Source of the DNA: Thermoanaerobaculia bacterium
Lineage (GTDB): Bacteria > Acidobacteriota > Thermoanaerobaculia > Multivoradales > Multivoraceae
Direction of reading: 5' to 3'
NCBI GenBank assembly: GCA_022823665.1
Contig: JAJEHN010000015.1
Span: 4,195-68,194, forward strand
Length of the DNA: 64,000 nucleotides
A program made the translations under genes and the position numbers. The notes under the pieces were generated by a model. The model saw only the letters and a list, made by a program, of their open reading frames with translations, did no database searches and had not been told where the DNA came from. This document shows, piece after piece, positions 11,471-41,076 of this stretch. Within the stretch, counting starts at the first letter, position 1, and each line of letters opens with the position of its first letter.

Positions 11471-12178
11471 TCAGGCTCCCTCGAGCACCGGCTCGATGCG
11501 CGGCGGCGGCGCGGTCGCCTCGGCCCGGCGCCGCGCCAGGGAGATCCGCGCGCGGCGCGCAACGAACCAGACGCAGACGAGGAACAAGGCGATCGCGTTG
11601 ATCCGGAGCGGCAGGATCATCGTCGTGTGCACCGTCTCCGGCGACGACTGCATCTGGTGGATGCTCCGCCACCAGTTGACCGAGAAGTAGACCAGCGGCG
11701 CATTGACCGAAGCGACGATGCTCGCCGCCGCCGTCCATGGCGCGCGCCTGTGCTCCTCCGCGAAGCGGCGCAGCGCCAGCACGCCGAGGAAGGTCAGCCA
11801 CATGACGAAGGTGAAGGTCAGCCGGGGATCCCAGGCCCAGTAGACGCCCCAGGTCGGCTTGGCCCAGACGATGCCGGAGAGCAGGCCGGCGGTCTCCAGA
11901 ATGACGCCGACCTCGATCACCCCGACCAGCATGCCGTCGATCCAGTCCTTCCGCTTCCACAGCGAAGCGGCGCCCACGAAGCCGGCCCCGAGGAAGCAGA
12001 CAAGCGCGTTCCACTGCAGCGGCACGTGGACGTAGAGGATGCGGTAGACCTCGCCCATGAAGCGTTCCGTGGGCGCCACGAAGAGGCCCAGGTAGACGCC
12101 TCCGATCAGCGCGGCGAGGCCGACCAGGCCGAACCAGTGCTCCCAGGCCCAGCCGCGTTTCGCGTCGACGGCGGTCAT
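11471..12178 (-). CDS. ccmC: Cytochrome c-type biogenesis heme exporter protein C
   Basis: 235 aa, 6 TM. The WWD signature (GVYWAWDPRLT) and conserved His residues are diagnostic of CcmC. No other ccm genes are in the window. Confidence 0.8.
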   Translation of the reverse strand: MTAVDAKRGWAWEHWFGLVGLAALIGGVYLGLFVAPTERFMGEVYRILYVHVPLQWNALVCFLGAGFVGAASLWKRKDWIDGMLVGVIEVGVILETAGLLSGIVWAKPTWGVYWAWDPRLTFTFVMWLTFLGVLALRRFAEEHRRAPWTAAASIVASVNAPLVYFSVNWWRSIHQMQSSPETVHTTMILPLRINAIALFLVCVWFVARRARISLARRRAEATAPPPRIEPVLEGA

Positions 12179-14452: not shown

Positions 14453-15586
14453 CTACTCCGGGAAGAGGCTCCGGTCCATCCCCGGGATGATCTTGAGCGC
14501 GTTGCGGAAGTAGATCTTCTCGAGCGCCCGGTCGGACAGGCCGAGGCCGTACATCTTCCAGTGGGCGTGGCGCTTCCGGTAGTAGTCGAAGTACTCATCC
14601 CGCGTCTCCAGCACGCGGAAGTAGATGTGGTAGCCCTCGATCGGGTCCCAGGAGTCCTTGCCCATCAGGACGCGGTCCTGGTACTGCTCGAGAAAGGCAG
14701 CGCCCGTGATCGGCTGCCGGCCGAGTTCGGCGAGGACCGCGCCGAGTTCGGTGTAGACGTTCGGCAGCTCGTCGAGCAGCTCGCCGAGCCGCGCCAGGTC
14801 GTTGCCGAGCCAGCCGAGATGGGCGTTGATGAAGGTCGTGTCGGGATGATTGCGGAACAAGTTGTGCTGCTCCCCCATCGTCTGCTCGAAGGAGGCGAAG
14901 CGCTTGGGATCGTCGCGACGCCGCCTCGGGAACATCTTGAGTTCGAGCCAGCGCTCGTTGTGCTCGTCCCAGGGGTCCCAGAACGGTGACGGCTCGCCGA
15001 CGTGGATCAGGACCGGGATGCCCAGCTCGCCCGCCTTCTCCCACACCGGAGCGATCCGCGGGTCGTCGGCCGCCACCCGCTGGCCGTCGCTGTCGGTCTG
15101 GAACATGCTGAGGTTCTTGTAGATCTTGAGACCCTGTGCGCCCGCCTCGACGTCGGCTTCGAGCTGCGCCGCCGCCTTCTCACCCCAGCCGGGTTGGCCG
15201 ATGCCCGAGAAGTCGACGTTCGCGTACACGACGAATCGACCCGGGTAGCGGCCCTTGGTGGCCGCGATGTTCCGCTGCAGCCCCTCGCCGCTGCCGCCGC
15301 TCAGGTTGACGAACACGGCCATGTTCAACTCGTCCATCGTCTTGATCATCTGGTCGATCCGCGCCGCATCGCCGCCGCGCAGATGGCCGTGAGCGTCGAC
15401 GAAGGGGAACTTCGCGCGCGTCACCGGTCCGCCCGGCACCTTGAGCGTCGAGCGCGGCTCGTACGCCTCCACGGTCATCTCCTGGCCGACGGCCGGCAGC
15501 GCCGCGGCGAGCAGCAGGGAGGCGAGCAGGAACCACCTCGGACCAGCGATTCGGATCGACGCGTTCGAACGGTGAGTGGCCGGCAT
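14453..15586 (-). CDS. Amidohydrolase-family (TIM-barrel metal-dependent hydrolase) secreted protein
   Basis: Signal peptide after the internal Met (MPATHRSNASIRIAGPRWFLLASLLLAAALPAVGQ). HxH metal-binding motif (FVDAHGHL). C-terminal motifs of the amidohydrolase_2 family. Confidence 0.65.
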   Translation of the reverse strand: MPATHRSNASIRIAGPRWFLLASLLLAAALPAVGQEMTVEAYEPRSTLKVPGGPVTRAKFPFVDAHGHLRGGDAARIDQMIKTMDELNMAVFVNLSGGSGEGLQRNIAATKGRYPGRFVVYANVDFSGIGQPGWGEKAAAQLEADVEAGAQGLKIYKNLSMFQTDSDGQRVAADDPRIAPVWEKAGELGIPVLIHVGEPSPFWDPWDEHNERWLELKMFPRRRRDDPKRFASFEQTMGEQHNLFRNHPDTTFINAHLGWLGNDLARLGELLDELPNVYTELGAVLAELGRQPITGAAFLEQYQDRVLMGKDSWDPIEGYHIYFRVLETRDEYFDYYRKRHAHWKMYGLGLSDRALEKIYFRNALKIIPGMDRSLFPE

Positions 15587-15683
15587 GTTCTCTTCCTCGG
15601 GTTCCAGATTGCTCGGCAAAGGCGTTGAAGCGGTCGGAGTCTACGGCAGGTTCCACCAGGCTACCCGCGTATACTCGCCGGCG

Positions 15684-15962
15684 ATGTCCATCGTGCGCGC
15701 CGCCGAGGTCGTCGTGCTGCTCTGCACCGTGTACATCGCCTGCGGCCTGGTCTTCGCAACGCTCTTCGCCTGGCGCGGCGCCGACCGCATCGATCCCGCC
15801 GTTAGGTCGGCCGGGCTCGGGTTCCGCCTGATCATCCTTCCCGGCGTCGTCGCGCTATGGCCCGTGCTGCTTCGCCGGTGGCTCTCCGGCCCCCTGCCGC
15901 CGGTGGAGCGCAACGCGCACCGCGACGCGGCCGAACGCCGCGGCAAGGGAGGTTCCGGATGA
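15684..15962 (+). CDS. Small membrane protein (2 TM), first gene of the lipid operon
   Basis: 92 aa from the internal Met MSIVRAAEVVVLLCTVYIACGLVFATLFAW...LIILPGVVALWPVLL. Its stop overlaps the next start (ATGA). Confidence 0.4.
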   Translation: MSIVRAAEVVVLLCTVYIACGLVFATLFAWRGADRIDPAVRSAGLGFRLIILPGVVALWPVLLRRWLSGPLPPVERNAHRDAAERRGKGGSG

Positions 15963-16153
15963 TCCGCGGCCTGCGCCGCCGCCACCGGCTGATCTGGGCG
16001 GTGCTGTTTCCTGTCGTGGCGTTGATACTGGTAGTCGCGTTGCTCTCGAGGCCCGAGCCGCCGTTGATGGACGAGATTCCCGCCGTGCGCCCGGTCGAAG
16101 CCGAGACGGTCAGCGGTGCCGAGGACCCTCAGCGGGAAGATGAAGGCCCGTGA
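15959..16153 (+). CDS. Small membrane protein (1 TM)
   Basis: 64 aa, MIRGLRRRHRLIWAVLFPVVALILVVALLS followed by an acidic tail. ATGA overlaps on both sides (with 15684..15962 and with the Rieske gene). Confidence 0.35.
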   Translation: MIRGLRRRHRLIWAVLFPVVALILVVALLSRPEPPLMDEIPAVRPVEAETVSGAEDPQREDEGP

Positions 16154-17220
16154 GCGCCGAGTACCAGGCGGTCCTCTGGAACCGCAACAAGAAGCTCTAC
16201 GACCTGACGATCGCGGCCGGCGTCGTGGCCTTTCTCGGCATCTTCGTCGGCATCGGCATCGCGACCCGCCCGCAGGCGACGATCGAAACCCTGCTGATCC
16301 GCGGCTTCGGCGCCGGCGCCCTGCTGCTGCTCCATGTCGTGCTCGCCATCGGGCCGCTCTGCCGGCTGGACTCCAGGTTCCTGCCCTTCCTCTACAACCG
16401 CCGCCACCTCGGCGTCTGCACGTTCCTGCTGGCCCTGGCTCACGGCGGGTTCTCGATCGTCCAGTTCCACGGCCTCGGCGTCCTCAACCCGCTGGTCAGC
16501 GTGCTTGCCAGCAACGGCAACTACGGCAGCCTGACCCAGTTCCCGTTCCAGGCGCTCGGCCTCCTGGCGCTGGTCATCCTGTTCCTGCTGGCGGCGACCT
16601 CGCACGACTTCTGGCTCGCGAACCTGACCGCGCCGGCGTGGAAGGCGCTCCACATGCTGGTCTACGTCGCCTACGGACTGATCCTGGTCCACGTGGCGCT
16701 GGGAAGCCTCCAGGCTCCGGAGCGATCGCCGGCGCTCGCCGTCCTGCTGGGCATCGGCTTCGCCGGCGTCGCCTCGTTGCACCTCGTGGCCGGCTGGCGC
16801 GAGCGCGCCCCGGCGCCGAACGCCGAGGTAGGCGGTGCCGCGGTCGATGTCTGCGCCGTCTCCGACATCCCCCTCGACCGGGCCCGGATCTTCCTGCTCA
16901 GCGGCGAGCGAGTGGCGGTGTTTCGTTACAGCGCGGACGGCGGCGAGCGAATCGCGGCCGTCTCCAACGTCTGCCAGCACCAGAACGGACCGCTCGGCGA
17001 AGGCCGGGTGATCGACGGCTGCATCACCTGCCCGTGGCACGGCTACCAGTACCGTCCCGAGGACGGCTGCTCGCCGCCGCCGTTCACGGAGACCATCCCG
17101 ACCTTCAACGTCCGCGTCGAGAACGGCCGGGTGCTGGTCGATCCGCGTCCCAATCCGCCCGGGACCCATGCCGAGCCGGCACGGCTCGGCGCCGCGACCG
17201 GCGCCGGGGAGCCTTCGTGA
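16150..17220 (+). CDS. Ferric-reductase-like transmembrane bis-heme domain fused to a Rieske [2Fe-2S] domain
   Basis: N-terminal six TM helices carrying two His pairs spaced 12-13 residues apart (RRHLGVCTFLLALAHGG; ALHMLVYVAYGLILVHVALG). This is the FRD/YedZ-type heme-b ligation pattern. The C-terminal Rieske box is CQHQNGPL...GCITCPWHGYQY (CxH-x16-CxxH). Confidence 0.8.
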   Translation: MSAEYQAVLWNRNKKLYDLTIAAGVVAFLGIFVGIGIATRPQATIETLLIRGFGAGALLLLHVVLAIGPLCRLDSRFLPFLYNRRHLGVCTFLLALAHGGFSIVQFHGLGVLNPLVSVLASNGNYGSLTQFPFQALGLLALVILFLLAATSHDFWLANLTAPAWKALHMLVYVAYGLILVHVALGSLQAPERSPALAVLLGIGFAGVASLHLVAGWRERAPAPNAEVGGAAVDVCAVSDIPLDRARIFLLSGERVAVFRYSADGGERIAAVSNVCQHQNGPLGEGRVIDGCITCPWHGYQYRPEDGCSPPPFTETIPTFNVRVENGRVLVDPRPNPPGTHAEPARLGAATGAGEPS

Positions 17221-18131
17221 CCGGCGAGCGCCACGACGATTTCTACGTCGGCTATGTCGACGAGACGCCGCCTCGCGTCGCGCGTTTCGCCCGCCGCGCC
17301 GCGATCGGCCTCGTGCTACTGGCCACCGCCCTGGGCGCCGGTCTGGCGCTGCTGCTGGAGCGGTTCGACGAAGGCGTCTTCGAGTACGGCACGGTGCGGG
17401 ACTACGAAGGCGAACTGTTCGTCGATCCCCATCCCCGGCTGCTGACGGCGGACGGACCGGCCGAGGGCTATCTGCTGGTCGGCGTGGGTAAACGGGCACT
17501 CGATGTAACCGGCGAGCCCAGCGCGCCCTCGACGCCCTCGCCGTCCAGGAAGACCGGGCTTTCGGGCACGCTCATCCGGAACCCGGAAGCGGCGATGCTG
17601 GAAGTCCACTCCCTCGATCTCCCTGAAGGAACCCTTGAAGCTGGACCCGCCGTCGAGCCGGACGCTCGGGCCGCTCAATCCGCTCCGCCGACCAGCGGCT
17701 CGCCCCTCGACGGCGAGAGGGCCGGTCCGGAGTCCGAGGTGACAACCATCGTCACTCACGTCCGTGGGCACACCCTGCTGGGCGAGATCGTCGACACGAA
17801 GTGCTATCTCGGCGCCATGAAGCCGGGCCGCGGCAAACCCCACCGGGACTGCGCCTCGCTCTGCATCCGGGGCGGCATTCCGGCCGCGCTCCTGGTGCGG
17901 ACGGAAGGCGGAGAGCGTCACCTGGTCCATCTGCTGAACCCGCAGGGCAAGCCGTTGGGGCGCGAGCTCCTCGAGTGGGTGGGCGAACCGGTGGAAGTGT
18001 GGGGAACCCTGAGGCGGCGCGAGAACCGCCTGTTCCTGCGGACAATCACCATCAGACCGACACGCGCCCCGGCGCCATCCATCGTCGTCCCGGCGGCGCG
18101 CGAACCCGGGGCTGCAACAGCCGATGACTGA
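17217..18131 (+). CDS. Membrane-anchored hypothetical protein
   Basis: GTG start overlapping the Rieske stop (GTGA). 304 aa. One N-terminal TM (AAIGLVLLATALGAGLALLL). A Pro/Ser-rich linker. A C-terminal domain with conserved Cys/His (CYLGAMKPGRGKPHRDCASLCIRGG). Its stop overlaps the olsB start by 8 nt. Confidence 0.5.
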   Translation: MTGERHDDFYVGYVDETPPRVARFARRAAIGLVLLATALGAGLALLLERFDEGVFEYGTVRDYEGELFVDPHPRLLTADGPAEGYLLVGVGKRALDVTGEPSAPSTPSPSRKTGLSGTLIRNPEAAMLEVHSLDLPEGTLEAGPAVEPDARAAQSAPPTSGSPLDGERAGPESEVTTIVTHVRGHTLLGEIVDTKCYLGAMKPGRGKPHRDCASLCIRGGIPAALLVRTEGGERHLVHLLNPQGKPLGRELLEWVGEPVEVWGTLRRRENRLFLRTITIRPTRAPAPSIVVPAAREPGAATADD

Positions 18132-18987
18132 ACCGGTACGCAGCAACGCCTCGGCAACCGGTTCGTGCGGCGGCAGCGTTCCGAGCCCCGAACGCCTGCC
18201 CGACGGTCAGATCGAAGCCGGCACCTACCGCCTGCGCTTCGCCCGCACCGCCGCCGACATCGACCGGCTGCTCGCGCTCCGTTTCGAGGTCTTCAACCTG
18301 GAGCTGGGTGAGGGCCTCGACGAGTCGTACGACACCGGCCGCGACACGGACGACTTCGACGCGAGTTGCCACCACATGCTGGTCGAGCGGACGGACGGCA
18401 CGATGATCGGCACGTACCGAATGCAGACGGCCGCCATGGCGGCCCGCGCCAACGGTTTCTACTCGGCCATCGAGTACGACCTGGACGCCCTGCCCCGCAG
18501 CGTGCTCGAGCAGTCGGTCGAGATCGGCCGGGCCTGCATCCATCGCCGGCACCGGAAGCGGACCGTTCTCTTCCTGCTCTGGCAGGGCCTGGCCCGCTAC
18601 ATGGTGCACAACCGCCTCCGCTACCTGTTCGGCTGCTGCTCCCTGACCAGCCAGGACCAGGCCGCCGGCATCCGGCTCTACCGGCAGCTCGTCGCGGCGG
18701 GCAAGGTCCGGCCCGACCTCGACGTACCGGTGCTCGAGCACGCCCGCTGCGAGGCGCCGGCCGAGGCGGTCGAGAACCGTCCGGAGGTCGAGATACCGGC
18801 CCTGTTCGCGACCTATCTGCGCTACGGCGCCCTCGTCTGCAGCCGGCCGGCCATCGACCGCGACTTCAAGACGATCGACTACCTGGTCCTGATGGACACC
18901 GCGACGCTCAGCCGGCGCATCCGGCTGATCTTCGGACTCGACCGGGCGCCGGCGGCCGGACCGGCCACGCACGCCGCCGACGCCTGA
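18124..18987 (+). CDS. olsB: Ornithine-acyl-ACP N-acyltransferase (OlsB-like GNAT / Acetyltransf_5)
   Basis: 287 aa. Hallmark OlsB N-terminal region YRLRFARTAADIDRLLALRFEVFNLELGEGL. Followed 5 nt later by a PlsC-type acyltransferase. Confidence 0.8.
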   Translation: MTEPVRSNASATGSCGGSVPSPERLPDGQIEAGTYRLRFARTAADIDRLLALRFEVFNLELGEGLDESYDTGRDTDDFDASCHHMLVERTDGTMIGTYRMQTAAMAARANGFYSAIEYDLDALPRSVLEQSVEIGRACIHRRHRKRTVLFLLWQGLARYMVHNRLRYLFGCCSLTSQDQAAGIRLYRQLVAAGKVRPDLDVPVLEHARCEAPAEAVENRPEVEIPALFATYLRYGALVCSRPAIDRDFKTIDYLVLMDTATLSRRIRLIFGLDRAPAAGPATHAADA

Positions 18988-18991
18988 GGGA

Positions 18992-19807
18992 ATGCGCCTC
19001 CTGCGCGTCTGCCGGCTGGCCTGGCGTGGCCCGGCATTCCTCCTGCTCACGCTGGCCGCGTGGCTGCCGCTGTTCGTGCTGAAGCCGTTTCTCGCGGGCC
19101 GCCGCTACCCGACCTGGCGGAAGGTCCGCGCCGGCATCATGCGCCGCTGGGGCCGCGCCTGCCTGGCGGTGCTCGGCTGCCGGGTGACGGTCCGTGGCGC
19201 GCCGCCGGCGCCGCCCTGCCTGCTGGTCTCGAACCACATCTCCTACGTCGACATCCTGGTGCTCGCGGCCTACTCGCCCGCCCGCTTCGTCTCCAAGGCC
19301 GAGATCGCGGACTGGCCCCTGGCCGGCACCGTCTGCCGAACGGTCGACATCATCTTCGTCGACCGCGGCCGGCGCCGCGACGTGACCCGGGTCGGCGAAC
19401 AGATCGCCGAAGCCCTCGAGGCCGGCGACCCGGTCATCCTCTTCCCCGAAGGCACCTCGACCCCCGGCGACGCGGTGGCCACCCTCAAGCCCTCCCTGCT
19501 GGCGCCGGCCGCCGTCCAGGAACTGCCGGTCCACTGGTCCGTTCTGCGCTACGAGACACCGGATGACGAGGATCCCGCCTTCCTGAGCGTCGCCTGGTGG
19601 GGCGAGATGCCGATGACGCCGCACGCGCCCGAGCTGCTCAAGCTCCGCCGCATCGAGTGCGCACTCGAGTTCGGAGCGGAACCGTTCCGCAACGCGGACC
19701 GCAAGGAACTCGCGGGCCTGCTGCGGCGCCGGATGACGGCGGCGTTCCGGCCGATGGTCTCGAGCGAGAAAGCGGCCGCCTCAACCGGCGACCGCCGGTT
19801 CCCATGA
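18992..19807 (+). CDS. olsA: Lyso-ornithine lipid O-acyltransferase (PlsC/LPLAT family)
   Basis: HX4D motif (SNHISYVDI) and FPEGT motif, with an N-terminal TM. It follows the olsB-like gene. Its stop overlaps the next start (ATGA). Confidence 0.8.
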   Translation: MRLLRVCRLAWRGPAFLLLTLAAWLPLFVLKPFLAGRRYPTWRKVRAGIMRRWGRACLAVLGCRVTVRGAPPAPPCLLVSNHISYVDILVLAAYSPARFVSKAEIADWPLAGTVCRTVDIIFVDRGRRRDVTRVGEQIAEALEAGDPVILFPEGTSTPGDAVATLKPSLLAPAAVQELPVHWSVLRYETPDDEDPAFLSVAWWGEMPMTPHAPELLKLRRIECALEFGAEPFRNADRKELAGLLRRRMTAAFRPMVSSEKAAASTGDRRFP

Positions 19808-22449
19808 CGACCTCCGGGCGGCGTCTGCCCTGGCTCCGGATCGCGCTCGGCGCCTATGCCGCCGCGCTGCTCGCGTCGACCGCCGTTCGCATCGTTGCGC
19901 CCGAACCGCCGCTGCCCGAACACCGCAAGACGATGGAGATCCCGACGCCGAGCGGCGAAGGCACGCTGCGCATCGCCTGGAACGAAGCGCCGGGAACCGA
20001 CGAGAGCATGTTTCCGCTCGTCTTGCTCCACGGTTCGCCCGGAAGCGCCGACAACTTCCGTCAACTCCGGGTGATCTGGGTTCTGAGAGCACTGGCCGAA
20101 CCGGCTGGCGACACGGACCAGAGCAGTGAGGCGGGGATCCGCAGCCGGCGGCTCATCACGCCCGACTTGCCAGGCTTCGGCGCCTCCGACAATCGCGTCG
20201 CCGACTACTCCTCCCGCGGCCACGCCGACTCGACGCTGAAGCTGCTCGACCGGCTGGGCGTCGACCGGTTTCACGTCCTCGGTTTCAGCATGGGCGGCGC
20301 GGTGGCGCTGCATCTCGTCGACCAGGCGCCCGACCGGGTGGCGTCCGTGATCATGGTCTCCTCGGTCGGCGTGCAGGAACTCGAGCTCCTGGGCGACTAC
20401 ACGGTCAACCACGGTCTGCACGGTCTCCAGCTCGGCCTGCTCTGGACGATCCGGAACCTGGTTCCCCACTTCGGCCTGCTCGACATCCCCGCAGCCCGCT
20501 CCTACGCCCGCAACTTCTACGACACGGATCAGCGACCACTACGAGGCATCCTGGAGTCCCTCGAAGCGCCGGTCTTCATCATCCACGGCGCGCGGGATCC
20601 ACTGGTCCCGGCCGCCGCGGCGCTGGAGCACCACCGCGTCGTGCCGCACAGCGAGCTGTGGATGCGGCCGGACAGCCACTTCTTCCTGTTCCGCGGCGGC
20701 GACGACCTGATGGATCGGATCGAGGAGTTCCTGGGCCGCGTCGAAGCGGGCGAGGCGGCCACGCGCGGCGATGCCGAAGCGGAGCGGCTGCGGCGGGCGG
20801 CACTGCCGTTCGACGACATGGACCTGCCGCCGTTCACCGGTCCCGCCCTGCTGATCGTCTTCCTGCTTCTCGTTTTCGCCGCGTACGCCAGCGAGGACCT
20901 GACCTGCATCACCGCCGGTCTGCTCGTCGCCCAAGGCCGGCTCGACTTCCCCGTGGCCGTCGCCGCCTGCTACGCCGGCATCCTGAGCAGCGACCTCGGC
21001 ATCGCCTGGCTGGCGCGCGTCCTCGGCCGGCCCGCGCTCAGACTGCCGCCCTTCAAGTGGTGGGTCAGCGAAGCGAGGTTCGAAGAGGCTTCGGCCTGGC
21101 TGCGGCGGCGCGCCCTGGTCGTCGTTCTGGTCAGCCGTTTCCTGCCGGGAACGCGGCTGCCGACGTGCCTGGCGGCCGGCATCCTGCGCACGAGCCTGCT
21201 CCGGTTCTGCTTCTACTTCGCTCTCGCCGTGGCCATCTGGACACCCGCCTTCGTCGGCGTCAACGCGCTCCTGGGACGCGAGGCGGTGGAACGTTTCGGC
21301 GGCCGGCTGCCGGGGGGGCTGCTCGGCGCCGCGCTGGCGCTGGCGGCCGTCATCTTCACCGTCCGGAGCGTCGTTGTGCCGCTCTTCACCTGGCGCGGCC
21401 GCCGCCTCTGGCGCGGCCGCCTGCTGCGCATCCGGCACTGGGAGTTCTGGCCGATGTGGGCGTTCTACCCGCCGCTCGCGCTCTACATCCTCTGGCAAGG
21501 CCTGCGACGCGGCAGCCTCACCGCGTTCACCGCGATCAACCCCGCCATGCCTCTCGGCGGCCTGCTCGGAGAATCGAAGAGCGACATCCTGGACGGGCTC
21601 GCCGGCATCGGCGACGCGCTGCCCGCCTGGAAGCGAATGCCGGCGGGAAGCCATGAGGAACGCATCGCGGCTCTGCGCTGCTTCCTGGAAGAAGAGAAGC
21701 TGGACTATCCGGTCGTGCTCAAGCCGGACACCGGCGAGCGCGGCCGCGGTGTCGCCGTGGCGCGCTCCGAAGCCGATGCGGCGACCTTCTTCGAGGAGAC
21801 GCCGGGACCGGCGCTCGCGCAGGAGTACGTCGCGGGCGAGGAGTACGGCGTGTTCTGGGCTCGCCACCCGGGCCGCCACGACGGGCACGTCTTCTCGATC
21901 ACCCACAAGGTCCGGCCCACGGTAACCGGCGACGGAACCAGCACCCTCGAACGGCTGATCCTGGCCGACGCGCGCGCCGTCGCCATCACCCACGTCTACC
22001 GGCGCGAACATCCGGAAGCGGCGACGCGGATCCCGGCCGCCGGCGAGGAAATCGAACTGACCGAGGTCGGCGCCCACTCGCGCGGGACGATCTTCCTGGA
22101 CGCGAACGACCTCCACACGCCCGAACTCGAACAGGCGATGAACACGATCTGCACCGCCTACGAGGGCTTCGACTTCGGCCGTCTCGATGTCCGCGCCCCC
22201 AGCGCCGAAGCCCTGCGGCGCGGTGAGGGCCTCCGCGTCCTGGAAGTCAACGGCGTGACCTCCGAGGCGACGCACATGTACGACGCCCGCTACGGCTTCT
22301 TCGCCGCCCACGCCATCCTGCGGCGCCAGTGGCGGATGGCCTTCGACCTCGCCGCCGAGCACACTCGCGACGGCGCCCAACCGGCGACCGTGAGTGAGAT
22401 CGTCCGCGCCGTCCGGGCAGAACGACGAGCCCGCCGCGGCGCGGCGTAG
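19804..22449 (+). CDS. Three-domain fusion: alpha/beta-hydrolase + DedA/VTT membrane domain + ATP-grasp carboxylate-amine ligase
   Basis: 881 aa from the internal Met (MTTSGRRLPWLRIALGAYAAALLAS, TM). (1) HGSPGS...GFSMGG (GxSxG nucleophile elbow) and a later ...IHGARDPLVP motif: alpha/beta-hydrolase. (2) LLIVFLLLVFAAYASEDLTCITAGLLVAQGRLDFPVAVAACYAGILSSDLGIAWLARVLGRP...LVSRFLPGTRLPTCLAAG: DedA/SNARE-associated. (3) YPVVLKPDTGERGRGVAVARSEADA...QEYVAGEEYGVFW...LEVNGVTSEATHMYDA: RimK-like ATP-grasp. The track ORF is extended 69 codons upstream. Confidence 0.75.
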   Translation: MTTSGRRLPWLRIALGAYAAALLASTAVRIVAPEPPLPEHRKTMEIPTPSGEGTLRIAWNEAPGTDESMFPLVLLHGSPGSADNFRQLRVIWVLRALAEPAGDTDQSSEAGIRSRRLITPDLPGFGASDNRVADYSSRGHADSTLKLLDRLGVDRFHVLGFSMGGAVALHLVDQAPDRVASVIMVSSVGVQELELLGDYTVNHGLHGLQLGLLWTIRNLVPHFGLLDIPAARSYARNFYDTDQRPLRGILESLEAPVFIIHGARDPLVPAAAALEHHRVVPHSELWMRPDSHFFLFRGGDDLMDRIEEFLGRVEAGEAATRGDAEAERLRRAALPFDDMDLPPFTGPALLIVFLLLVFAAYASEDLTCITAGLLVAQGRLDFPVAVAACYAGILSSDLGIAWLARVLGRPALRLPPFKWWVSEARFEEASAWLRRRALVVVLVSRFLPGTRLPTCLAAGILRTSLLRFCFYFALAVAIWTPAFVGVNALLGREAVERFGGRLPGGLLGAALALAAVIFTVRSVVVPLFTWRGRRLWRGRLLRIRHWEFWPMWAFYPPLALYILWQGLRRGSLTAFTAINPAMPLGGLLGESKSDILDGLAGIGDALPAWKRMPAGSHEERIAALRCFLEEEKLDYPVVLKPDTGERGRGVAVARSEADAATFFEETPGPALAQEYVAGEEYGVFWARHPGRHDGHVFSITHKVRPTVTGDGTSTLERLILADARAVAITHVYRREHPEAATRIPAAGEEIELTEVGAHSRGTIFLDANDLHTPELEQAMNTICTAYEGFDFGRLDVRAPSAEALRRGEGLRVLEVNGVTSEATHMYDARYGFFAAHAILRRQWRMAFDLAAEHTRDGAQPATVSEIVRAVRAERRARRGAA

Positions 22450-22453
22450 CGCC

Positions 22454-22921
22454 TTACCCCGCCTTCGCGGACGCCTTCTTCTTCGTCGTCCGCCGCCGCG
22501 GCTTCGGCTTCTCCAGGGCGTCGAGTCGCGCTTCGATCGCGCTCAGCCGCTCGATCACCGCCTCCAGGTCGGCCTTGCCGGGGACGCCGAGCTTCTCGAG
22601 TCGCCGCTCCAGGTGCTCGTCGATTCCCGTCCGCGCCTTGGCCCGGGTCTGCTCGATTCCCTTCTCGGCGGCGGAGCGCACCTGCTGGACCTTCTCCTCG
22701 GCCTTGTCCCGCCAGTTGCCCAGGGAGTCCCGACCCTGGCTTTCGACCTTCTCGCCGCGGGCGACCAGCCGGTCGAAGACCTTGGCCCCCGCGTCCGCCG
22801 CTTCGCCCGCCACGCCGACGCCGGCGAGCGCCACCTTGTGAGCCTTGTCGACGGCGGATTCGACCACCGCCCGCGCTTTCGATTCGCTATCCCTGGTTTC
22901 CGCCGCGGATGCTGCTGTCAT
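22454..22921 (-). CDS. Phasin / PHA granule-associated protein (TIGR01837-like)
   Basis: 155 aa. Coiled-coil, Lys/Glu-rich. The motif ...KVFDRLVARGEKVESQGRD...LEKLGVPGKADLEAVIERLSAIEARLDALE is typical of the poly(hydroxyalkanoate) granule-associated family. Confidence 0.6.
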   Translation of the reverse strand: MTAASAAETRDSESKARAVVESAVDKAHKVALAGVGVAGEAADAGAKVFDRLVARGEKVESQGRDSLGNWRDKAEEKVQQVRSAAEKGIEQTRAKARTGIDEHLERRLEKLGVPGKADLEAVIERLSAIEARLDALEKPKPRRRTTKKKASAKAG

Positions 22922-22937: not shown

Positions 22938-23711
22938 CTAGCGCCTTGCCGCCAGCCGCCGCTTCACCGTCTCGATGGGATTGCGATAGTCCACCGTGCC
23001 GAGGCCGCGGTTGGTCAGCTTGTAACCGATCAACGCCTGCAGCTTCTCCGGCATTTCCACCACGACTTCCCACGGCACGCCGACGAACTGGTTCTCCCGC
23101 TGCTTGAGCCACGCCAGGTTGAAGTTGAAGTTGATCGACCGTCGATACCCGTTGTCCGTCGAATTCCCGCCGCCCCGGTGCCAGACGGCGCCGTCCCAGA
23201 GGAACAGCGCCCCGGCCGGCATCTCCACGGTCAGCGTGGGCACGTCCGGATCGACCGGATCGGCAGAGCGGTGGCTGCCGGGAACGATCTCCGTCGCCCC
23301 GTTCTCGGCCGTAAACGGATCGAGCGCGATCAACGTGTTGGCGATCAGCGGAAAGTGCGGCCGCGCAAGCGGATAGTGGCCGTCGTCCTGGTGCATCCGC
23401 TGGCGACGGTCGCCCGGGCCCGGGCGCATCGCGGCGACGCCGGAGACCTGGTAGTCCGGGCCGAGCACCGCCTCCACCAGCCCCAGCAGGCGGTCGTCCA
23501 TGAGGAGTTCGTCGACGGCGCGGGTCTTGGCCAGCAGGTTGTGGGTGTGGATCGTCTGCTGGCCGTAGTCGTCCGTCAGCCGGCTGCCGATCTCGTCGAA
23601 AACGGGGGCGAGGCCACGCCGCAGCCCCTCCAGCATCTCTTCGTCCAGGAAGTCGGGCACCACCGTGTAGCCGTCTTGGCGGACCTGGCGCGCTGAAGTC
23701 TCGATATCCAT
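22938..23711 (-). CDS. Phytanoyl-CoA dioxygenase (PhyH) family Fe(II)/2-oxoglutarate oxygenase
   Basis: PhyH fold markers: HQDDGHYP (HxD facial triad), GALFLWDGAVWHRGGGN (distal His), RRS. Start set at the internal Met MDIETSARQ. Confidence 0.7.
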   Translation of the reverse strand: MDIETSARQVRQDGYTVVPDFLDEEMLEGLRRGLAPVFDEIGSRLTDDYGQQTIHTHNLLAKTRAVDELLMDDRLLGLVEAVLGPDYQVSGVAAMRPGPGDRRQRMHQDDGHYPLARPHFPLIANTLIALDPFTAENGATEIVPGSHRSADPVDPDVPTLTVEMPAGALFLWDGAVWHRGGGNSTDNGYRRSINFNFNLAWLKQRENQFVGVPWEVVVEMPEKLQALIGYKLTNRGLGTVDYRNPIETVKRRLAARR

Positions 23712-25884: not shown

Positions 25885-26301
25885 TCAACGACCGCCTTCG
25901 GGGGCGAACGGGTCGAGCACCGGGACTCCGAACGGCTCGAAGTCCCGGACATTCCGGGTAACCACCGTGAGGCCATGAGTTCGGGCCACGGCCGCGATCA
26001 TCGCGTCCTGGACCAAGGCTCCGGACTGCCGGTGCATCAGCCGTCCCCATTCTCTGAACGCGGCTGAGTCCAGAACCAGGACGGGATAGGCAAGGACCAC
26101 CTGCTCCAGCCATGTCTCCAACTCCCGAGCCTTGTCCGCGTCCGTCGCCCTCGTGATCTCGATTCCCGCCTGGATCTCGCCGATCGTGACCGCAGAGAGA
26201 TGAAGACGCTCGGACGGCACGCCGCGAATCCACCGCAGAACCGACGGATGCGGGCGAGGACGTCGCAACTCGGATACGACGTTCGTGTCGAGCAGATACA
26301 C
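25885..26301 (-). CDS. vapC: PIN-domain toxin VapC (type II TA)
   Basis: 138 aa. MYLLDTNVVSE (first acidic residue of the PIN fold). Conserved D...E...D...TRN pattern. A Phd/YefM-like gene sits immediately upstream, 5 nt away. Confidence 0.8.
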   Translation of the reverse strand: MYLLDTNVVSELRRPRPHPSVLRWIRGVPSERLHLSAVTIGEIQAGIEITRATDADKARELETWLEQVVLAYPVLVLDSAAFREWGRLMHRQSGALVQDAMIAAVARTHGLTVVTRNVRDFEPFGVPVLDPFAPEGGR

Positions 26302-26306
26302 GGAAG

Positions 26307-26567
26307 TCAGTCGAAACGCGGCGCGGCGCGGCGGCGCAACGCCCGCCGCGGCGGAGCCAGGGTCTCGGTCCGCGGTTCAGAGGCCAGCAGCAGCGTCTTG
26401 AGGTCCGGCCTCGACGCCCGCAGCAGCAGCCGCCACTGCTCGATGGGCACCAGGACGGCCGTCTCGACGCCACGCTTCGTCACGATCTGTGGCCCCTCGG
26501 CGACACTCGTCTCCAGGAACTCGCTGAAACGGGCCTTCGCATCCTGCACCTGCCACACGTTGTCCAT
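26307..26567 (-). CDS. vapB: Phd/YefM-family antitoxin (VapB-like)
   Basis: 86 aa. N-terminal W.V.DAKARFSEFLE...GPQIVTKRGVETAVLVPIEQW is the Phd/YefM fold. Confidence 0.75.
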   Translation of the reverse strand: MDNVWQVQDAKARFSEFLETSVAEGPQIVTKRGVETAVLVPIEQWRLLLRASRPDLKTLLLASEPRTETLAPPRRALRRRAAPRFD

Positions 26568-35703: not shown

Positions 35704-36018
35704 ATGCTCGAGATCTTCCTTGGGCTGTACATCTTCATGCTCGCGGCCTTCGTCGGCTACGGCGTGATCAAGGGTGTACCTGCCCTGCTCCACACTCCGC
35801 TGATGGCGTTCACGAACGCGATCTCCGGCATCTCCCTGGTCGGCTCCCTGGTCGCCGCCGGCGCCCACTACAACGACGTGAGCACCGTCCTCGGCGCCAT
35901 CGCCGTGCTCTGCGCGACGATCAACGTCGTCGGCGGCTTCTGGATCACGGACCGCATGCTGCGGATGTTCAAGAAGCAGGACCCGAAGGCTGACGCGGCC
36001 GGAGACGCCGCATCGTGA
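35704..36018 (+). CDS. pntAB: NAD(P) transhydrogenase subunit alpha part 2 (membrane dII fragment)
   Basis: 104 aa, 3 TM (MLEIFLGLYIFMLAAFVGYGVIKGVPALLHTPLMAFTNAISGIS...). Position and size are canonical for split PntA. Confidence 0.85.
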   Translation: MLEIFLGLYIFMLAAFVGYGVIKGVPALLHTPLMAFTNAISGISLVGSLVAAGAHYNDVSTVLGAIAVLCATINVVGGFWITDRMLRMFKKQDPKADAAGDAAS

Positions 36019-37427
36019 TCAGCCAGGTCGAGACGCTCTACCTGATCGCGTCGTTCCTGTTCATCCTAGGGCTCCGCGGCCTGACCGCGGCCCACACGGC
36101 CCGGCGCGGGCTGATCTTCGCTGAACTGGGCATGGGGTTCGCCATCTGGGGCACCCTGATCCACCCGGACATCATGGCCCGCTTCGAGATCGCGGGCTTC
36201 TTCGACACCTACAAGTGGATCCTGCTGACCTTCTTCATCGGCAGCGCCATCGGCATCGCCATCTCGGCGCTCATCCCGATGACCCGGATGCCCGAGCGGA
36301 TCGCCCTCTCCCACGCCTTCGGCGGACTCGCCGCGGCGCTGGTCGGCGTCTCCGAGTACTACCGCGAGCAGGTCGTCGCCGGGCACATGGACCACACGAC
36401 GATGGGCGCGATCGGCTTCGAGGTCCTGTTCGGGGGATTGACCTTCACCGGCTCGCTGATGGCCTTCGGCAAACTCTCGGGCCTCATTCCCGGCCGCAAC
36501 ATCACCTGGCCGCTCCAGAACCAGAGCAACATCCTGATGTTCGGGGGCACCTTCGTGCTCCTCGTCCTGGTCACCATCGACCCGTCGAACCAGATCCTCT
36601 TCTACGCCATGGCGGCGATGCCGCTGCTGCTCGGCATCCTGTTCGTGGCGCCCATCGGCGGCGCCGACATGCCGGTCGTCATCACGCTGCTCAACTCCTA
36701 CGCCGGCCTCGCCGCCTCGGCGACCGGATTCGCACTGGACAACAACGTCCTGATCATCGCCGGCGCCATCGACGGCGCCTCGGGTTTCATCCTCTCCGTC
36801 GTCATGAGCAAGGCGATGAACCGCTCGTTCCGCAACGTCCTGTTCGGCGCCTTCGGCAAGGTCGACGAGGAAGACGCGGCGATGGCCTCCGCGGGCGGCG
36901 AACGGGTCCAGGAAGCCTCCGTCGGCGATGCCGCGATGCTGCTCTCCGGCGCAGGCTCCGTCATCGTCTGCCCCGGCTACGGCATGGCGGTGGCACAGGC
37001 CCAGCACGTCGTCGGCGAACTGGCCGAGATCCTGGAAGCGAACGGCACCCAGGTCCGCTACGCCATCCATCCCGTCGCCGGCCGCATGCCTGGCCACATG
37101 AACGTCCTGCTCGCCGAGGCGAAGATTCCCTACACGTCGCTGATGGAGCTCGAGGAGATCAACGAGGACTTCAAGAACACCGACGTCGCCCTCGTCGTCG
37201 GCGCCAACGACGTAGTCAACCCGGCCGCGAAGCACAACCCGGCCAGCTCGATCTACGGCATGCCGGTGCTGAACGCCGACCTGGCGAGGTCCTGCATCGT
37301 CCTCAAGCGCTCGATGCGGCCGGGCTTCGCCGGCATCGAGAACGAGCTGTTCTTCGCACCGAACACGGTGCTGACGTTCGGCGACGCGAAGGACACGTTG
37401 GAGAAAGTCGTCGAGGCGTTGCGTTAA
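36015..37427 (+). CDS. pntB: NAD(P) transhydrogenase subunit beta
   Basis: 470 aa. N-terminal 9 TM plus a C-terminal dIII NADP(H)-binding domain (GYGMAVAQAQH...VGANDVVNPAA). Overlaps pntAB by 4 nt. Confidence 0.92.
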   Translation: MISQVETLYLIASFLFILGLRGLTAAHTARRGLIFAELGMGFAIWGTLIHPDIMARFEIAGFFDTYKWILLTFFIGSAIGIAISALIPMTRMPERIALSHAFGGLAAALVGVSEYYREQVVAGHMDHTTMGAIGFEVLFGGLTFTGSLMAFGKLSGLIPGRNITWPLQNQSNILMFGGTFVLLVLVTIDPSNQILFYAMAAMPLLLGILFVAPIGGADMPVVITLLNSYAGLAASATGFALDNNVLIIAGAIDGASGFILSVVMSKAMNRSFRNVLFGAFGKVDEEDAAMASAGGERVQEASVGDAAMLLSGAGSVIVCPGYGMAVAQAQHVVGELAEILEANGTQVRYAIHPVAGRMPGHMNVLLAEAKIPYTSLMELEEINEDFKNTDVALVVGANDVVNPAAKHNPASSIYGMPVLNADLARSCIVLKRSMRPGFAGIENELFFAPNTVLTFGDAKDTLEKVVEALR

Positions 37428-37475
37428 GGGCGCGCTGCGTACTTGGCTTCCCGCCATGCCGCGAAAGCTGGCGAT

Positions 37476-38438
37476 CTATGAGACCTCGCTGCCTCCGAAA
37501 TGGATGATCCGGCCTTCCGGATCGGGAATCCACGGGCCCGAAACCGCCATCACCACTGTCCTTGGAGGGTCGGCAAGACCTCTCTCAACAACCGTTGGAG
37601 GTAACGCTTCAAAGATGACTGGAACGTCAGATGGGTAAGGCCAGTCCGGCCCCGAGAACCATCGAGTTGGACTGGTGTGACTCCTTCCTATCAGCACAAC
37701 CTCGCCATCATCCAAGAAACTCGAATAGTACGCCTTCTTCTCGGCCTCAAGCCAAACCTTCTTCCGAAAGGTCGTCCCGCCAGCCTCGGACCAGCCACCA
37801 AGCTGATGCCGGAGCTCCGCACCGTAGAAGACCGTCCCGAGGCTCAACTTCTGCGCCTCCTTGAGGCGCTTGAGTGACTCCTCGCGCCCCTCAAGAGTCC
37901 AGTCCAGTCGTGGCTCGCGAACTCGCTCGGGGTGATTCGTCAGACCAAGCACGCCGCTAGTCTCTCCAGCCTTACCGAGCACCATCTGCTCGATATGAAT
38001 CAGCACCCGCTGAGCGTAGTACGCCGCATCGTGCTTGACGGGATCATGATAGTGTACGTGCGGCAGACGTTTGGCAGGAGGAGGGGGGAACGGCAATTGA
38101 AGAACGGGTACGGGCGCTCCTTCCCTATAGTGCAACTCCAAGTCGGTGGGGACCTTCAGGGCAAGACTGTAGGCAGGGAAAACGTGTCTTCGGCCATGCA
38201 CCGACTCGCGAGCCGAGCTACAGTATGCTTGGATCCAGGACCATTCCTCCGCACTGCGCGAAACAGGTGCACGCGCCACGGCCAGCTTGATTCTCGATCT
38301 TTGATTCTCGTACATTCCCGACGTGACTACCTCGTCGAGCACGTCCATGTACTTCTGGGGATCAAGTCCCATATCTCCGGCCATGCGCTCGACTTGATTC
38401 CTGCGCAGCGACCGCGCTTGCTGGGGACAACTCGTCAT
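37476..38438 (-). CDS. Hypothetical protein in a reduced-GC island (candidate restriction-system component)
   Basis: No recognisable motifs. Lies 22 nt downstream of the DNA MTase gene on the same strand, inside the GC-depressed segment. Start chosen at internal Met M27; M1 and M45 are also possible. Confidence 0.4.
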   Translation of the reverse strand: MTSCPQQARSLRRNQVERMAGDMGLDPQKYMDVLDEVVTSGMYENQRSRIKLAVARAPVSRSAEEWSWIQAYCSSARESVHGRRHVFPAYSLALKVPTDLELHYREGAPVPVLQLPFPPPPAKRLPHVHYHDPVKHDAAYYAQRVLIHIEQMVLGKAGETSGVLGLTNHPERVREPRLDWTLEGREESLKRLKEAQKLSLGTVFYGAELRHQLGGWSEAGGTTFRKKVWLEAEKKAYYSSFLDDGEVVLIGRSHTSPTRWFSGPDWPYPSDVPVIFEALPPTVVERGLADPPRTVVMAVSGPWIPDPEGRIIHFGGSEVS

Positions 38439-38537
38439 GGGCCGACCGTACAACTCTGCGCGACCTTGGTCAAGCGGACTACCTCGACCCGGTACTGCGC
38501 CTCCACGACCGACCAAAGAAGGTGACGGATACAGCCA

Positions 38538-39893: not shown

Positions 39894-40699
39894 TCGTCGC
39901 GCCCCAGAAGGGTGCTCAGCACGCTACCTACCTCGGAGCGAAGCGTGTCGGCGTGACGGGCGAAGAAACCGCCCAGGTCGTAGCCGACGATCCTCGCCAT
40001 GAACTCATACGTCGACGTTAGAGGATCACCGCTCCTGAACTCCCCAGTCAGCACCACCCACCGGGCGGCCCTGTAGCGCAGGAGCACGTCTCGGTCGATC
40101 TGCTGGGACAGAACCAGAAGACAGGGGAGATACCCGCTAGTGTACGCCGCTACCGCGTTCGCCAGGTCGGCCTGCTGGCGTTTGCTGTCCTTGCTCTTGT
40201 ACCCCTGCCGCACCTCGAAGACGGCCCCCTTCAGGGAGCCGACGATCGAGGTGTCTACATCGACGGAGTCGGCAGCTTGGCGGATCCATCCCCGAAGCCG
40301 ATCTCTTGAGGGCTCATCGTGCACATCGTCGAGGGTCACTCGACCGTCCAGAGAGAGACGCCTCCGTTTTCCGTCCGACAGCGTGGTCTCGTAAGACCAG
40401 ATCACTTCCTCCGCGGACAGACCGAGTGCGTCCTGGAGTACCTCTCGGAACACGCGCTCGCAGGCGATACCGATCTGCCTGTAGATACTCGTCATTCCGC
40501 CGGCAGACCGATGGGCCGTGTAGAGCTTCGGATCGTCGAGCCCAAGCCATGTGTAGAACGGGTCCGCGCGGTAGAGATCGCGGAACTCCGCAAGAGTCAG
40601 CCCAGCCATCCTTCCCTGGCCGAACTTCGGCCGGTAATCGGCGCAGGACCGCACGCAATCTACGAAGATCCTGAGATAGTCATCGTCACGCGCTGTCAT
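39890..40699 (-). CDS. Hypothetical protein, first gene of the MTase operon (possible cognate restriction endonuclease)
   Basis: 269 aa with no family I can assign from sequence. Translationally coupled to the MTase. Type II REases are typically orphan in sequence; the assignment rests on position only. Confidence 0.4.
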   Translation of the reverse strand: MTARDDDYLRIFVDCVRSCADYRPKFGQGRMAGLTLAEFRDLYRADPFYTWLGLDDPKLYTAHRSAGGMTSIYRQIGIACERVFREVLQDALGLSAEEVIWSYETTLSDGKRRRLSLDGRVTLDDVHDEPSRDRLRGWIRQAADSVDVDTSIVGSLKGAVFEVRQGYKSKDSKRQQADLANAVAAYTSGYLPCLLVLSQQIDRDVLLRYRAARWVVLTGEFRSGDPLTSTYEFMARIVGYDLGGFFARHADTLRSEVGSVLSTLLGRDE

Positions 40700-41076
40700 G
40701 AGGTTCTCTCATCCGGAGGGAGTGGCCCGCGGTTGGCAACGAGCCGAGCGGTAAGGCGGACGAGCGCGGTGCACAGGATCAGCGTGTTCGCCTATTACTG
40801 ACACGAGATCACTCCGAGCGCAGGTGACTGCGCAGAATCTCCCTCACGACATCTTCCAAGGACCTCTCGGAACCAGCGACATCGCTCAGCCGAGGGTCCA
40901 CGAGGAGGCCAAGCCTACACGGACCCTCCGGTGACGAGCCTCGGTCCCAACTCCGCGACTCGCAGAGGCGACTGCCAGCGTGACGGCGGTCAGCCTGATC
41001 CTTCGCCGGCTGACCCGAACACTCCGGAGCGGTCGGAGCCTCGCCTCTGCCCCCCCGGGTCGCCTCAACCTCCAAC

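Follow-up and report, generated by a model that had tools for sequence, protein, structure and literature searches.

What electron route is served by a ferric reductase-type membrane domain (FRD) that carries a Rieske [2Fe-2S] domain on the same polypeptide? The question is raised by a gene encoding such a fusion in a 64,000-nucleotide stretch of DNA (hereafter the window) from a Thermoanaerobaculia bacterium of the Acidobacteriota (NCBI GenBank assembly GCA_022823665.1, contig JAJEHN010000015.1, positions 4,195 to 68,194 of the forward strand). Analysis of this gene and its relatives makes it reasonably likely that the fusion is the core of a three-compartment electron-transfer module, consisting of a cytoplasmic Rieske domain, a membrane conduit and a periplasmic acceptor. 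The genes of the conserved cassette, given by their positions in the window, are as follows.

15684..15962, + strand: smallTM1, 92 amino acids, two transmembrane (TM) helices; predicted membrane subunit of the cassette
16150..17220, + strand: FRD-Rieske fusion gene, GTG start, 356 amino acids; six TM helices, MsrQ-like FRD and C-terminal Rieske [2Fe-2S] domain
17217..18131, + strand: partner protein, 304 amino acids; cytoplasmic FYVGY motif, a single TM helix at residues ~28-47, and two periplasmic beta-barrels resembling the oligonucleotide/oligosaccharide-binding (OB) fold

The bare FRD-Rieske architecture is already known. Rieske was listed among the 'electron transfer agent' accessory domains of bacterial FRDs (model M4) by Zhang et al. 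(2013, PLoS One 8:e58126), who gave no function, partner or distribution for it, whose supplements make no mention of Rieske, and who described bacterial extensions as generally confined to close relatives. At the time of that survey, MsrQ (YedZ) was the only characterised bacterial FRD family. No functional study of the fusion, of the Pfam domain pair or of the neighbouring enzymes was found in the literature. It is the conserved cassette of three unannotated families that is new: the usual flavin or NADPH input is replaced by a tethered Rieske cluster, and the paired periplasmic family is entirely unannotated.

The fusion protein and its family

An earlier reading of the window, made from the sequence alone (the sequence-only reading), had described a ferric reductase-like domain fused to a Rieske domain, and this is confirmed. 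The open reading frame (ORF) occupies exactly 16150..17220, and an identical protein is present in a public metagenome assembly in which the gene call is the same ORF. Both of the hidden Markov models that had been suggested as a check match the protein above their gathering scores, namely Ferric_reduct (PF01794; residues 52-178, 47.2 bits against 28, E 2.8e-12) and Rieske (PF00355; residues 232-319, 54.1 bits against 20.3, E 1.5e-14). Rieske_2 also matches (39.8 against a cut-off of 27). No FAD_binding or NAD_binding domains were detected in the protein by Pfam, its C-terminal domain being Rieske.

The family is large. A search of 5.8 billion proteins returned at least 8000 matching clusters at 90% identity, all with E <= 1e-5; among the matches listed, every one has both domains, the names are only generic (e.g. 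'Rieske 2Fe-2S domain-containing protein') and the closest are from metagenome-assembled genomes of Holophagales/Acidobacteriota. At E <= 1e-30 there are 265 representatives of 50%-identity clusters, and relatives are named 'YedZ' in several public annotations. A scan of one genome per species identified the fusion in at least 456 species-level genomes of about ten phyla, 80 loci of which were kept. Conservation counts (out of 81) refer to the window protein plus these 80 species-level loci, while locus counts (out of 80) refer to the 80 loci themselves, with neighbour counts not corrected for phylogeny. The 80 loci span Acidobacteriota, Gemmatimonadota, Planctomycetota, Bacteroidota, Verrucomicrobiota, Cyanobacteria, Nitrospirota, Krumholzibacteriota and Alpha-, Beta- and Gammaproteobacteria. 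Such a spread over some ten phyla together with a conserved cassette contradicts the published idea of short-lived bacterial FRD fusions. Two cultured strains are among them, Pseudotenacibaculum haliotis KCTC 52127 and Roseibium algae H3510, and their possession of the cassette makes it directly testable.

The predicted cofactor ligands are nearly invariant. Of the TM histidines, H86 is found in 81/81 sequences and H98, H168 and H181 in 80/81 each; the Rieske ligands C275, H277, C294 and H297 are each present in 81/81. R84, R85 and H152 are likewise each present in 81/81 and H211 in 79/81, and the ligand core is still invariant in an alignment reaching down to 35% identity. Loss of these His and Cys residues in homologues had been named as grounds for abandoning the sequence-only reading; each of its ligands is retained in 80-81 of the 81 sequences. 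Judged from these alignments, the conserved arrangement of histidines and Rieske ligands is well beyond chance. Three further residues are partially conserved: H62 on TM2 (window 16333-16335; 55/81, otherwise Thr or Ser), H107 at the periplasmic end of TM3 (16468-16470; 65/81) and C235 at the start of the Rieske domain (16852-16854; 43/81, otherwise mostly Gly). Their distribution suggests subfamily-specific sites.

Predicted haem ligands and inner cofactor pocket

The features of the membrane domain are listed below (FMN, flavin mononucleotide).

16303..16683, + strand: Pfam Ferric_reduct match, residues 52-178, TM2-TM5; best NCBIfam match there is MsrQ
16399..16407, + strand: R84-R85-H86, cytoplasmic end of TM3; R84/R85 correspond to MsrQ R77/R78 (FMN pocket) and H86 is a family-specific invariant residue
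16441..16443, + strand: H98 (TM3), predicted axial ligand of a periplasm-side b haem; corresponds to MsrQ H91 and to a STEAP1 His
16600..16605, + strand: S151-H152, cytoplasmic end of TM4; S151 corresponds to MsrQ S135, H152 is invariant only in this family
16639..16653, + strand: W164-K-A-L-H168, cytoplasmic side of TM5; correspond to MsrQ W147 and H151 (FMN pocket)
16690..16692, + strand: H181 (TM5), second predicted ligand of the periplasm-side haem; corresponds to MsrQ H164
16780..16782, + strand: H211 (TM6, near the cytoplasmic end), family-specific His, 79/81

On sequence grounds, the membrane domain is of the MsrQ/STEAP-type FRD subgroup. Its best NCBIfam match is MsrQ (NF003831), at 42.9 bits and thus far under the equivalog cut-off of 130. 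STEAP1 was the one solved structure detected when a profile of the TM part was compared with the PDB, and this match was marginal (E 0.006); the TM part as a single sequence gave no match in the PDB. In the STEAP1 profile alignment, H98 falls on the His of FFAVLHAIY and R84-R85-H86 on R-K-Q. Alignment of the family with E. coli MsrQ gave invariant columns for R84 (MsrQ R77), R85 (R78), H98 (H91), S151 (S135), W164 (W147), H168 (H151) and H181 (H164). In the family, R84, R85, S151, W164 and H168, which are the MsrQ-pocket residues among these, are each conserved in 80-81 of 81 sequences. It has been described that MsrQ and the STEAPs contain a single haem, on the outer side, and that, in a model of MsrQ, an FMN stands in for the NOX inner haem, its pocket being formed by R77, R78, S135, W147 and H151, with S135 contacting flavin N5 (PMC12525009). 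R77 occupies the position of an essential NOX inner-haem His and H151 that of the other one, while in STEAPs an inner flavin bridges the cytoplasmic donor and the haem (PMC12525009).

The flavin-pocket signature of MsrQ and STEAPs (Arg-Arg/Lys on TM3, Ser on TM4 and W/F-x3-H/Q on TM5) is present in the fusion, as are the outer-haem histidines that FRDs carry on TM3 and TM5, here H98 and H181. The two residues would ligate a single b-type haem close to the periplasm. The cytoplasm-proximal pocket of R84, R85, S151, W164 and H168 would hold a second cofactor, for which a flavin is favoured and a second haem, bound through H86, H152 or H211, is the alternative.

The sequence-only reading had proposed ligation of two haems, as in FRD/YedZ proteins, by His pairs spaced 12-13 residues apart. 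The pairs exist as described, H86/H98 on TM3 (spacing of 12) and H168/H181 on TM5 (spacing of 13), and the outer half of the proposal stands, H98 and H181 matching proven haem ligands of MsrQ. The inner half is less secure. In bis-haem FRDs the inner position of TM3 is a His that precedes the outer His by 13-14 residues; in this family it is R84, in 81/81 sequences. The inner His of TM5 is present (H168). H86 lies two residues beyond R84, ~200 degrees round the helix, and is 12 residues from H98 instead of the 13-14 of canonical FRD pairs. Because the TM3 inner-haem position is Arg and H86 is on another helix face, a bis-haem assignment is doubtful and unsupported by homology. The Arg-containing pattern of YedZ and STEAP has been tied to single-haem forms (Zhang et al. 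2013, PLoS One 8:e58126). H86, H152 and H211 all lie one or two turns from the cytoplasmic surface and, since they are invariant and family-specific, the inner cofactor may differ from the FMN of MsrQ.

The Rieske domain and membrane topology

The Rieske part of the protein comprises the following features.

16843..17142, + strand: Rieske ferredoxin-type domain, residues 232-331; predicted cytoplasmic
16972..16980, + strand: Rieske box 1, C275-Q-H277; 81/81
17029..17040, + strand: Rieske box 2, C294-P-W-H297; 81/81, without flanking bc1-type disulfide Cys

The soluble CxH...CxxH box noted earlier was found after TM6. The two boxes read CQHQNG and CPWHG and are 16 residues apart, within the Rieske spacing of 15-17, and the extra Cys pair of the bc1/b6f type is absent. 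Rieske proteins of the ferredoxin type, which have no such pair, are expected to be of low potential. As the Cys pair of high-potential bc1/b6f proteins is missing, the cluster of the fusion is likewise expected to be low-potential and ferredoxin-like. Among solved structures, the sequence is closest to Rieske ferredoxins that serve oxygenases, namely CarAc, BphA3 and the NDO ferredoxin; in NCBIfam, this part is matched best by NirD and dioxygenase ferredoxin subunits. Structural results for the fusion come from an AlphaFold model of P0123, a ~600-amino-acid relative of 63% identity. The Rieske domain of this model superposes on CarAc, BphA3 and T4moC with TM-scores of 0.80-0.88 and root-mean-square deviations of 1.7-2.8 Å. 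Only Rieske proteins appeared in the top 50 Foldseek matches of the model, so the search gives no independent test of the FRD fold.

Six hydrophobic segments are present in the fusion protein, and the P0123 model has six long helices ahead of the Rieske domain. Counted over the 81 sequences, Lys and Arg average 12.9 for loops 2-3 and 4-5 combined with both the N-terminus and the stretch beyond TM6, as against 1.7 for the other three loops. A topology with six TM helices and both termini in the cytoplasm, the same as that of FRD proteins already characterised, is suggested; the Rieske cluster would be cytoplasmic, given this charge distribution and the layout of the fused relatives described below. 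Rieske proteins of bc1/b6f complexes are exported to the P side by the twin-arginine translocation (Tat) pathway; the domain here follows TM6 and has no twin-arginine signal. These features are most naturally read as those of one membrane-spanning, redox-active polypeptide that carries a soluble Rieske domain, as had been envisaged.

A conserved, predicted periplasmic partner protein

The natural partner of the fusion had been called unknown in the sequence-only reading, a statement that the flanking genes now overturn. Inspection of the genes around homologous fusions, which that reading had recommended, identified recurrent partner genes on both sides across the 80 loci: the downstream 304-amino-acid protein (77/80) and the upstream 92-amino-acid membrane protein (72/80) are conserved partners. 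In the window, the GTG start of the downstream gene overlaps the TGA stop of the fusion gene (GTGA). This gene lies directly downstream of the fusion as a separate gene in 70 loci and is fused to it in frame in 7, the latter spread over five phyla. Among the first hundred listed representatives at 50% identity, 38 are also fused forms of ~600 amino acids, which the query matched only over their first ~350 residues. The C-terminal half of one such form, P0123, matches the window ORF 17217..18131 (E 7e-31). Its model (pLDDT 82.9, pTM 0.82) contains six TM helices, the Rieske domain, a seventh TM helix (TM7) and two barrels; in this layout the Rieske domain and the barrels would be on opposite sides of the membrane. 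The partner carries a conserved cytoplasmic F-x-V-G-Y/W motif, and its TM helix has more positive charge before it than after it.

The partner contains an invariant motif that is a potential cofactor site.

17793..17864, + strand: partner motif D193-T-K195-C196-YLGA-M201-K-P203-GRGKP-H209-RD-C212-ASL-C216, second barrel; predicted redox/metal site

Residues D193, K195, C196, M201, P203, H209, C212 and C216 are each conserved in 78/78 sequences, and the general form of the motif is D-x-K-C-x4-M-x-P-x5-H-x2-C-x3-C. In a model of the partner (pLDDT 74), it is located between a strand (185-193) and a helix (210-218), in a dip of confidence. No relatives of the partner were found in Pfam, NCBIfam or PDB sequences, and a faint match to DUF5818 was seen in 7/41 members (best E 0.019). 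Foldseek comparison of the partner model with the PDB gave weak matches only, to OB-fold and single-stranded DNA-binding (SSB) proteins (E >= 0.012), and these model-based matches are read as indicating fold class, not homology. Export of the partner by Tat was considered and rejected, a twin-arginine (RR) motif being present in only 21/78 sequences. Since these motifs are not conserved, the barrels are probably exported unfolded, and any cofactor would be acquired in the periplasm.

Small membrane proteins upstream of the fusion

SmallTM1 is encoded upstream of the fusion on the same strand in the 72 loci mentioned above according to tblastn, and in 70 loci according to ORF clustering. It is characterised by the motif R-x-DP...GFRLxIxPG..ALWPxLLxRW and has no conserved His or Cys. 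No family for it was found in Pfam or NCBIfam, and the same gene call is made in the public assembly. A second small gene lies between smallTM1 and the fusion in the window.

15959..16153, + strand: smallTM2, 64 amino acids, single-pass, starting MIRGLRRRHRLIW; variable accessory

It overlaps smallTM1 (ATGA) and the fusion gene (GTGA), and has no family match in Pfam or NCBIfam. Its motif, [RK]x[RK]Hxx[IVLM]W, is found just upstream of the fusion gene in only 12/80 loci, and smallTM2 was rejected as a universal subunit on this count. Besides the window, smallTM2-like proteins were noted at L018, L021, L031, L032, L035, L061 and L074. In Bacteroidota, proteins with a similar start (L-R-K/R-R-H-x-x-I-W) reach ~130-145 amino acids, with an added periplasmic beta-rich domain.

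Comparison with characterised systems

MsrQ of the E. coli MsrPQ system is, like the fusion, a six-TM FRD in which the key residues align, and it hands electrons to a periplasmic partner encoded next door, the layout that is proposed for the fusion. MsrQ differs in having no fused domain, in its use of a separate flavin reductase and in its partner, the soluble molybdoenzyme MsrP. The fusion has its Rieske domain on the same chain, an anchored double-barrel partner with a Cys3-His site, a two-helix subunit and the extra invariant residues H86, H152 and H211. With a sub-threshold NCBIfam equivalog score and, next to it, a different, unclassified periplasmic protein family in place of MsrP, the fusion is, on sequence criteria, not MsrQ proper. 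STEAP1-4 fall into one FRD subgroup with the fusion, having Arg at the inner position of TM3 and a single, outer haem; STEAP2-4 differ from the fusion in possessing an N-terminal F420/NADPH-type dehydrogenase domain and in reducing free Fe3+ or Cu2+ directly, and the STEAPs are without a Rieske domain or a dedicated extracytoplasmic partner protein. Long NOX/FRE forms (NOX2, NOX5, SpNOX and yeast FRE) resemble the fusion in carrying a C-terminal cytoplasmic input module after TM6 and in exporting electrons. Where the fusion has a Rieske domain and an Arg, they have an input module that binds FAD and NADPH and a His at the inner position of TM3; they also contain two haems.

Rieske ferredoxins (CarAc, BphA3/BphF, T4moC and the NDO ferredoxin) and NirD are the best matches of residues 232-331, with intact ligands and no bc1 disulfide. 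In oxygenase systems, the Rieske ferredoxins move freely in solution between reductase and oxygenase, unlike the Rieske domain of the fusion, which is tethered to a putative membrane haem protein. Joining of an FRD-type domain to an extracytoplasmic partner via a final TM helix, as in the ~600-amino-acid relatives, is also known from the MsrQ-MsrP-like fusion Sco3746 of Streptomyces (eLife 2017;6:e26577). In such Sec/Tat fusions a twin-arginine motif precedes the last helix and the domain exported by Tat is a cofactor-loaded one (eLife 2017;6:e26577), in contrast with the sparse RR motifs of the partner family (21/78).

Lipid genes and Rieske-tagged enzymes near the cassette

The cassette of the window continues into genes for a putative pair of lipid acyltransferases, the order from head to tail being smallTM1, smallTM2, fusion, partner, OlsB-like GNAT, OlsA-like PlsC and an 881-amino-acid protein.

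18124..18987, + strand: OlsB-like N-acyltransferase (GNAT, Acetyltransf_5); start overlaps the partner gene by 8 nucleotides
18992..19807, + strand: OlsA-like lyso-lipid O-acyltransferase (PlsC family); 4-nucleotide gap after the OlsB-like gene

The best NCBIfam matches of both are ornithine-lipid synthases, below cut-off (135 against 350 bits for the OlsB-like protein and 130 against 300 for the OlsA-like one). As these scores are well below the equivalog cut-offs, the amino-lipid made by the pair may not be ornithine lipid. The sequence-only reading had placed the fusion inside a lipid operon; this holds for the window, where overlapping genes lead up to the OlsB/OlsA-like pair, but not for the family at large, a GNAT gene being found near the cassette in only 13/80 loci and a PlsC gene in 11/80. 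A GNAT/PlsC pair directly follows the cassette on the same strand in 9 loci of four phyla. The association of cassette and lipid genes is above chance yet far from universal.

In 20/80 loci the cassette is located beside genes for a Rieske domain joined to TPP_enzyme_N/M/C (650 amino acids, 14 loci; TPP, thiamine pyrophosphate), for a Rieske domain joined to a Glu_synthase FMN domain (538 amino acids, 16 loci), or for both. These loci are from Bacteroidota, Phycisphaerae, Verrucomicrobiales and Alpha- and Gammaproteobacteria. The Rieske domain is N-terminal in these enzymes, which are 54-75% identical across phyla; an example is L023:532-5395 of Pseudotenacibaculum haliotis. Pfam scans of recurrent neighbour clusters revealed no molybdoenzyme or other known FRD partner.

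Proposed electron route and alternative explanations

In the proposed module, the tethered Rieske domain would act as a one-electron entry port, a task that falls to a separate flavin reductase in MsrQ and to the NADPH domain in NOX and STEAP. Electrons would pass from the Rieske cluster to the inner cofactor, to the outer haem at H98/H181 and on to the partner (17217..18131), whose Cys3/His/Met/Asp/Lys motif is the likely acceptor site, as a bound metal, a haem or a redox-active cysteine centre. SmallTM1 (15684..15962) may be a further obligatory, structural membrane subunit, and the Rieske-tagged TPP and FMN enzymes of the 20 other genomes are candidate cytoplasmic donors. Outward electron flow is favoured because characterised FRD proteins export electrons, the membrane potential assists export and a Rieske domain of low potential is expected. 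The translational coupling to the acyltransferase pair points to shared regulation or an envelope-linked function, not to action on the lipid itself. A broader and more tentative proposal, to which somewhat less than an even chance is given, is that the fusion is the hub of a phylum-spanning electron-export system, supplied in some genomes by the Rieske-tagged TPP- and FMN-dependent enzymes acting as dehydrogenases, and feeding a new class of periplasmic Cys3-His-Met double OB-like barrel proteins. These would carry out some envelope reaction, for which metal reduction or delivery, haem handling and repair are candidates. The identity of the acceptor would assign function to three uncharacterised protein families together and could reveal a new bacterial route for reducing power to the envelope.

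Several observations weigh against the three-compartment module in this form. H86, H152 and H211, invariant and at cytoplasmic depth, are unexplained by a simple MsrQ-like flavin site. The OB-fold match of the partner is weak, with its best E value at 0.012, and the cofactor proposed for it is a guess; the lack of a conserved twin-arginine motif counts against an exported Fe-S domain and is silent on what the partner does bind. The direction of flow is drawn only from analogy with other FRDs and from the membrane potential, and no Rieske-tagged TPP or FMN enzyme is encoded in the window.

Four other explanations were weighed. A NOX/FRE-like bis-haem domain fed by the Rieske cluster, with H86 and H168 holding the inner haem and H98 and H181 the outer one, would account for four invariant histidines on TM3 and TM5, for the absence of a flavin-reductase domain from the fusion, and for H152 and H211, which are invariant at the same membrane depth and would suit haem or metal ligation. 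It is nevertheless rather unlikely, as the MsrQ alignment puts R84 where NOX, on the equivalence given in PMC12525009, has its inner-haem His, H86 is two residues on and faces elsewhere with a spacing of 12 and not 13-14 from H98, the MsrQ FMN-pocket signature (RR, S and W-x3-H) is kept complete and the Arg-containing pattern goes with single-haem forms (Zhang et al. 2013). Flow in the inward direction, from the partner or a quinol pool through the haem domain to the cytoplasmic Rieske cluster and on to Rieske-dependent enzymes such as the glutamate-synthase-type FMN enzyme, is given a small probability, lower than that of the bis-haem domain. Glutamate-synthase FMN domains are normally reductive, and enzymes with their own Rieske input domain do stand beside the cassette in 20/80 loci; quinones are moreover bound by MsrQ (PMC12525009). 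Against this, inward flow is opposed by the membrane potential, a ferredoxin/oxygenase-type Rieske of expected low potential would be a poor acceptor from quinol, NOX, FRE, STEAP and MsrQ all export electrons, and in 60/80 loci, as in the window, the core cassette is found without Rieske-tagged enzymes.

A third possibility is that the cassette is a dedicated redox accessory of the synthesis or modification of an amino-lipid of the ornithine-lipid type, supplying for example electrons for lipid hydroxylation. In the window a single overlapping operon extends from the partner through the OlsB/OlsA-like genes to the hydrolase-DedA-ATP-grasp gene, the GNAT/PlsC pair follows the cassette directly in the 9 loci of four phyla, one locus (L036) has both a Rieske-FMN enzyme and lipid genes, and genes for ATP-grasp, DinB-like and TANGO2-like proteins recur in 11-17 loci. 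Even so this is judged unlikely, if a little less so than inward flow: an OlsB-like gene is absent within 6 kb in 67/80 loci, no oxygenase or desaturase catalytic domain was detected in the cassette by Pfam, and the site of the partner would be periplasmic whereas OlsB/OlsA chemistry is cytoplasmic. Finally, the fusion could be orthologous to MsrQ, with the Rieske domain as a simple addition, and serve an MsrP-type molybdoenzyme encoded elsewhere in methionine sulfoxide repair. MsrQ is indeed the best NCBIfam match of the membrane domain, its functional residues are conserved and the name 'YedZ' is attached to relatives in several public records; the score of 42.9 bits against 130, the lack of a molybdoenzyme among the Pfam-scanned recurrent neighbour clusters and the constant presence of another periplasmic protein family next to the fusion, at times fused to it, make this explanation highly improbable. 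The three-compartment module with outward flow remains the preferred reading.

Other features of the operon and the window

The 881-amino-acid ORF after the acyltransferase pair (19804..22449, + strand) combines an alpha/beta-hydrolase, a DedA/VTT membrane domain and a C-terminal ATP-grasp-like region. The ATP-grasp part is found near the cassette in 16-17/80 loci, sometimes as a separate protein of ~378 amino acids. Genes for a DinB-like protein of 198 amino acids (16 loci) and a TANGO2/NRDE-family protein (11 loci) are located downstream of the cassette (e.g. L002:9465-10721); they accompany OlsBA-like and ATP-grasp genes and were not detected in the window. Scans of 15300..22800 for sigma-70 promoters and intrinsic terminators, which are uninformative for this phylum, gave none. 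Public gene calls place a 155-amino-acid ORF (22454..22921, opposite strand) just past the lipid genes, followed by a gene of the phytanoyl-CoA dioxygenase family (PhyH; 22938..23711, - strand), a possible lipid hydroxylase.

Approximately 4 kb upstream of the cassette, a gene for a 235-amino-acid Cytochrom_C_asm protein (CcsA/CcmC-like, haem-handling; 11471..12178, - strand) adjoins an enoyl-CoA hydratase gene; this stand-alone gene is not recurrent near the cassettes of other loci. A PIN-domain toxin and PhdYeFM antitoxin pair is found at 25885..26567 (- strand; public gene calls). The G+C content is 0.62-0.66 at 36000..42000, compared with 0.68-0.72 elsewhere in the window, and this region may be foreign DNA or may reflect a different gene content.

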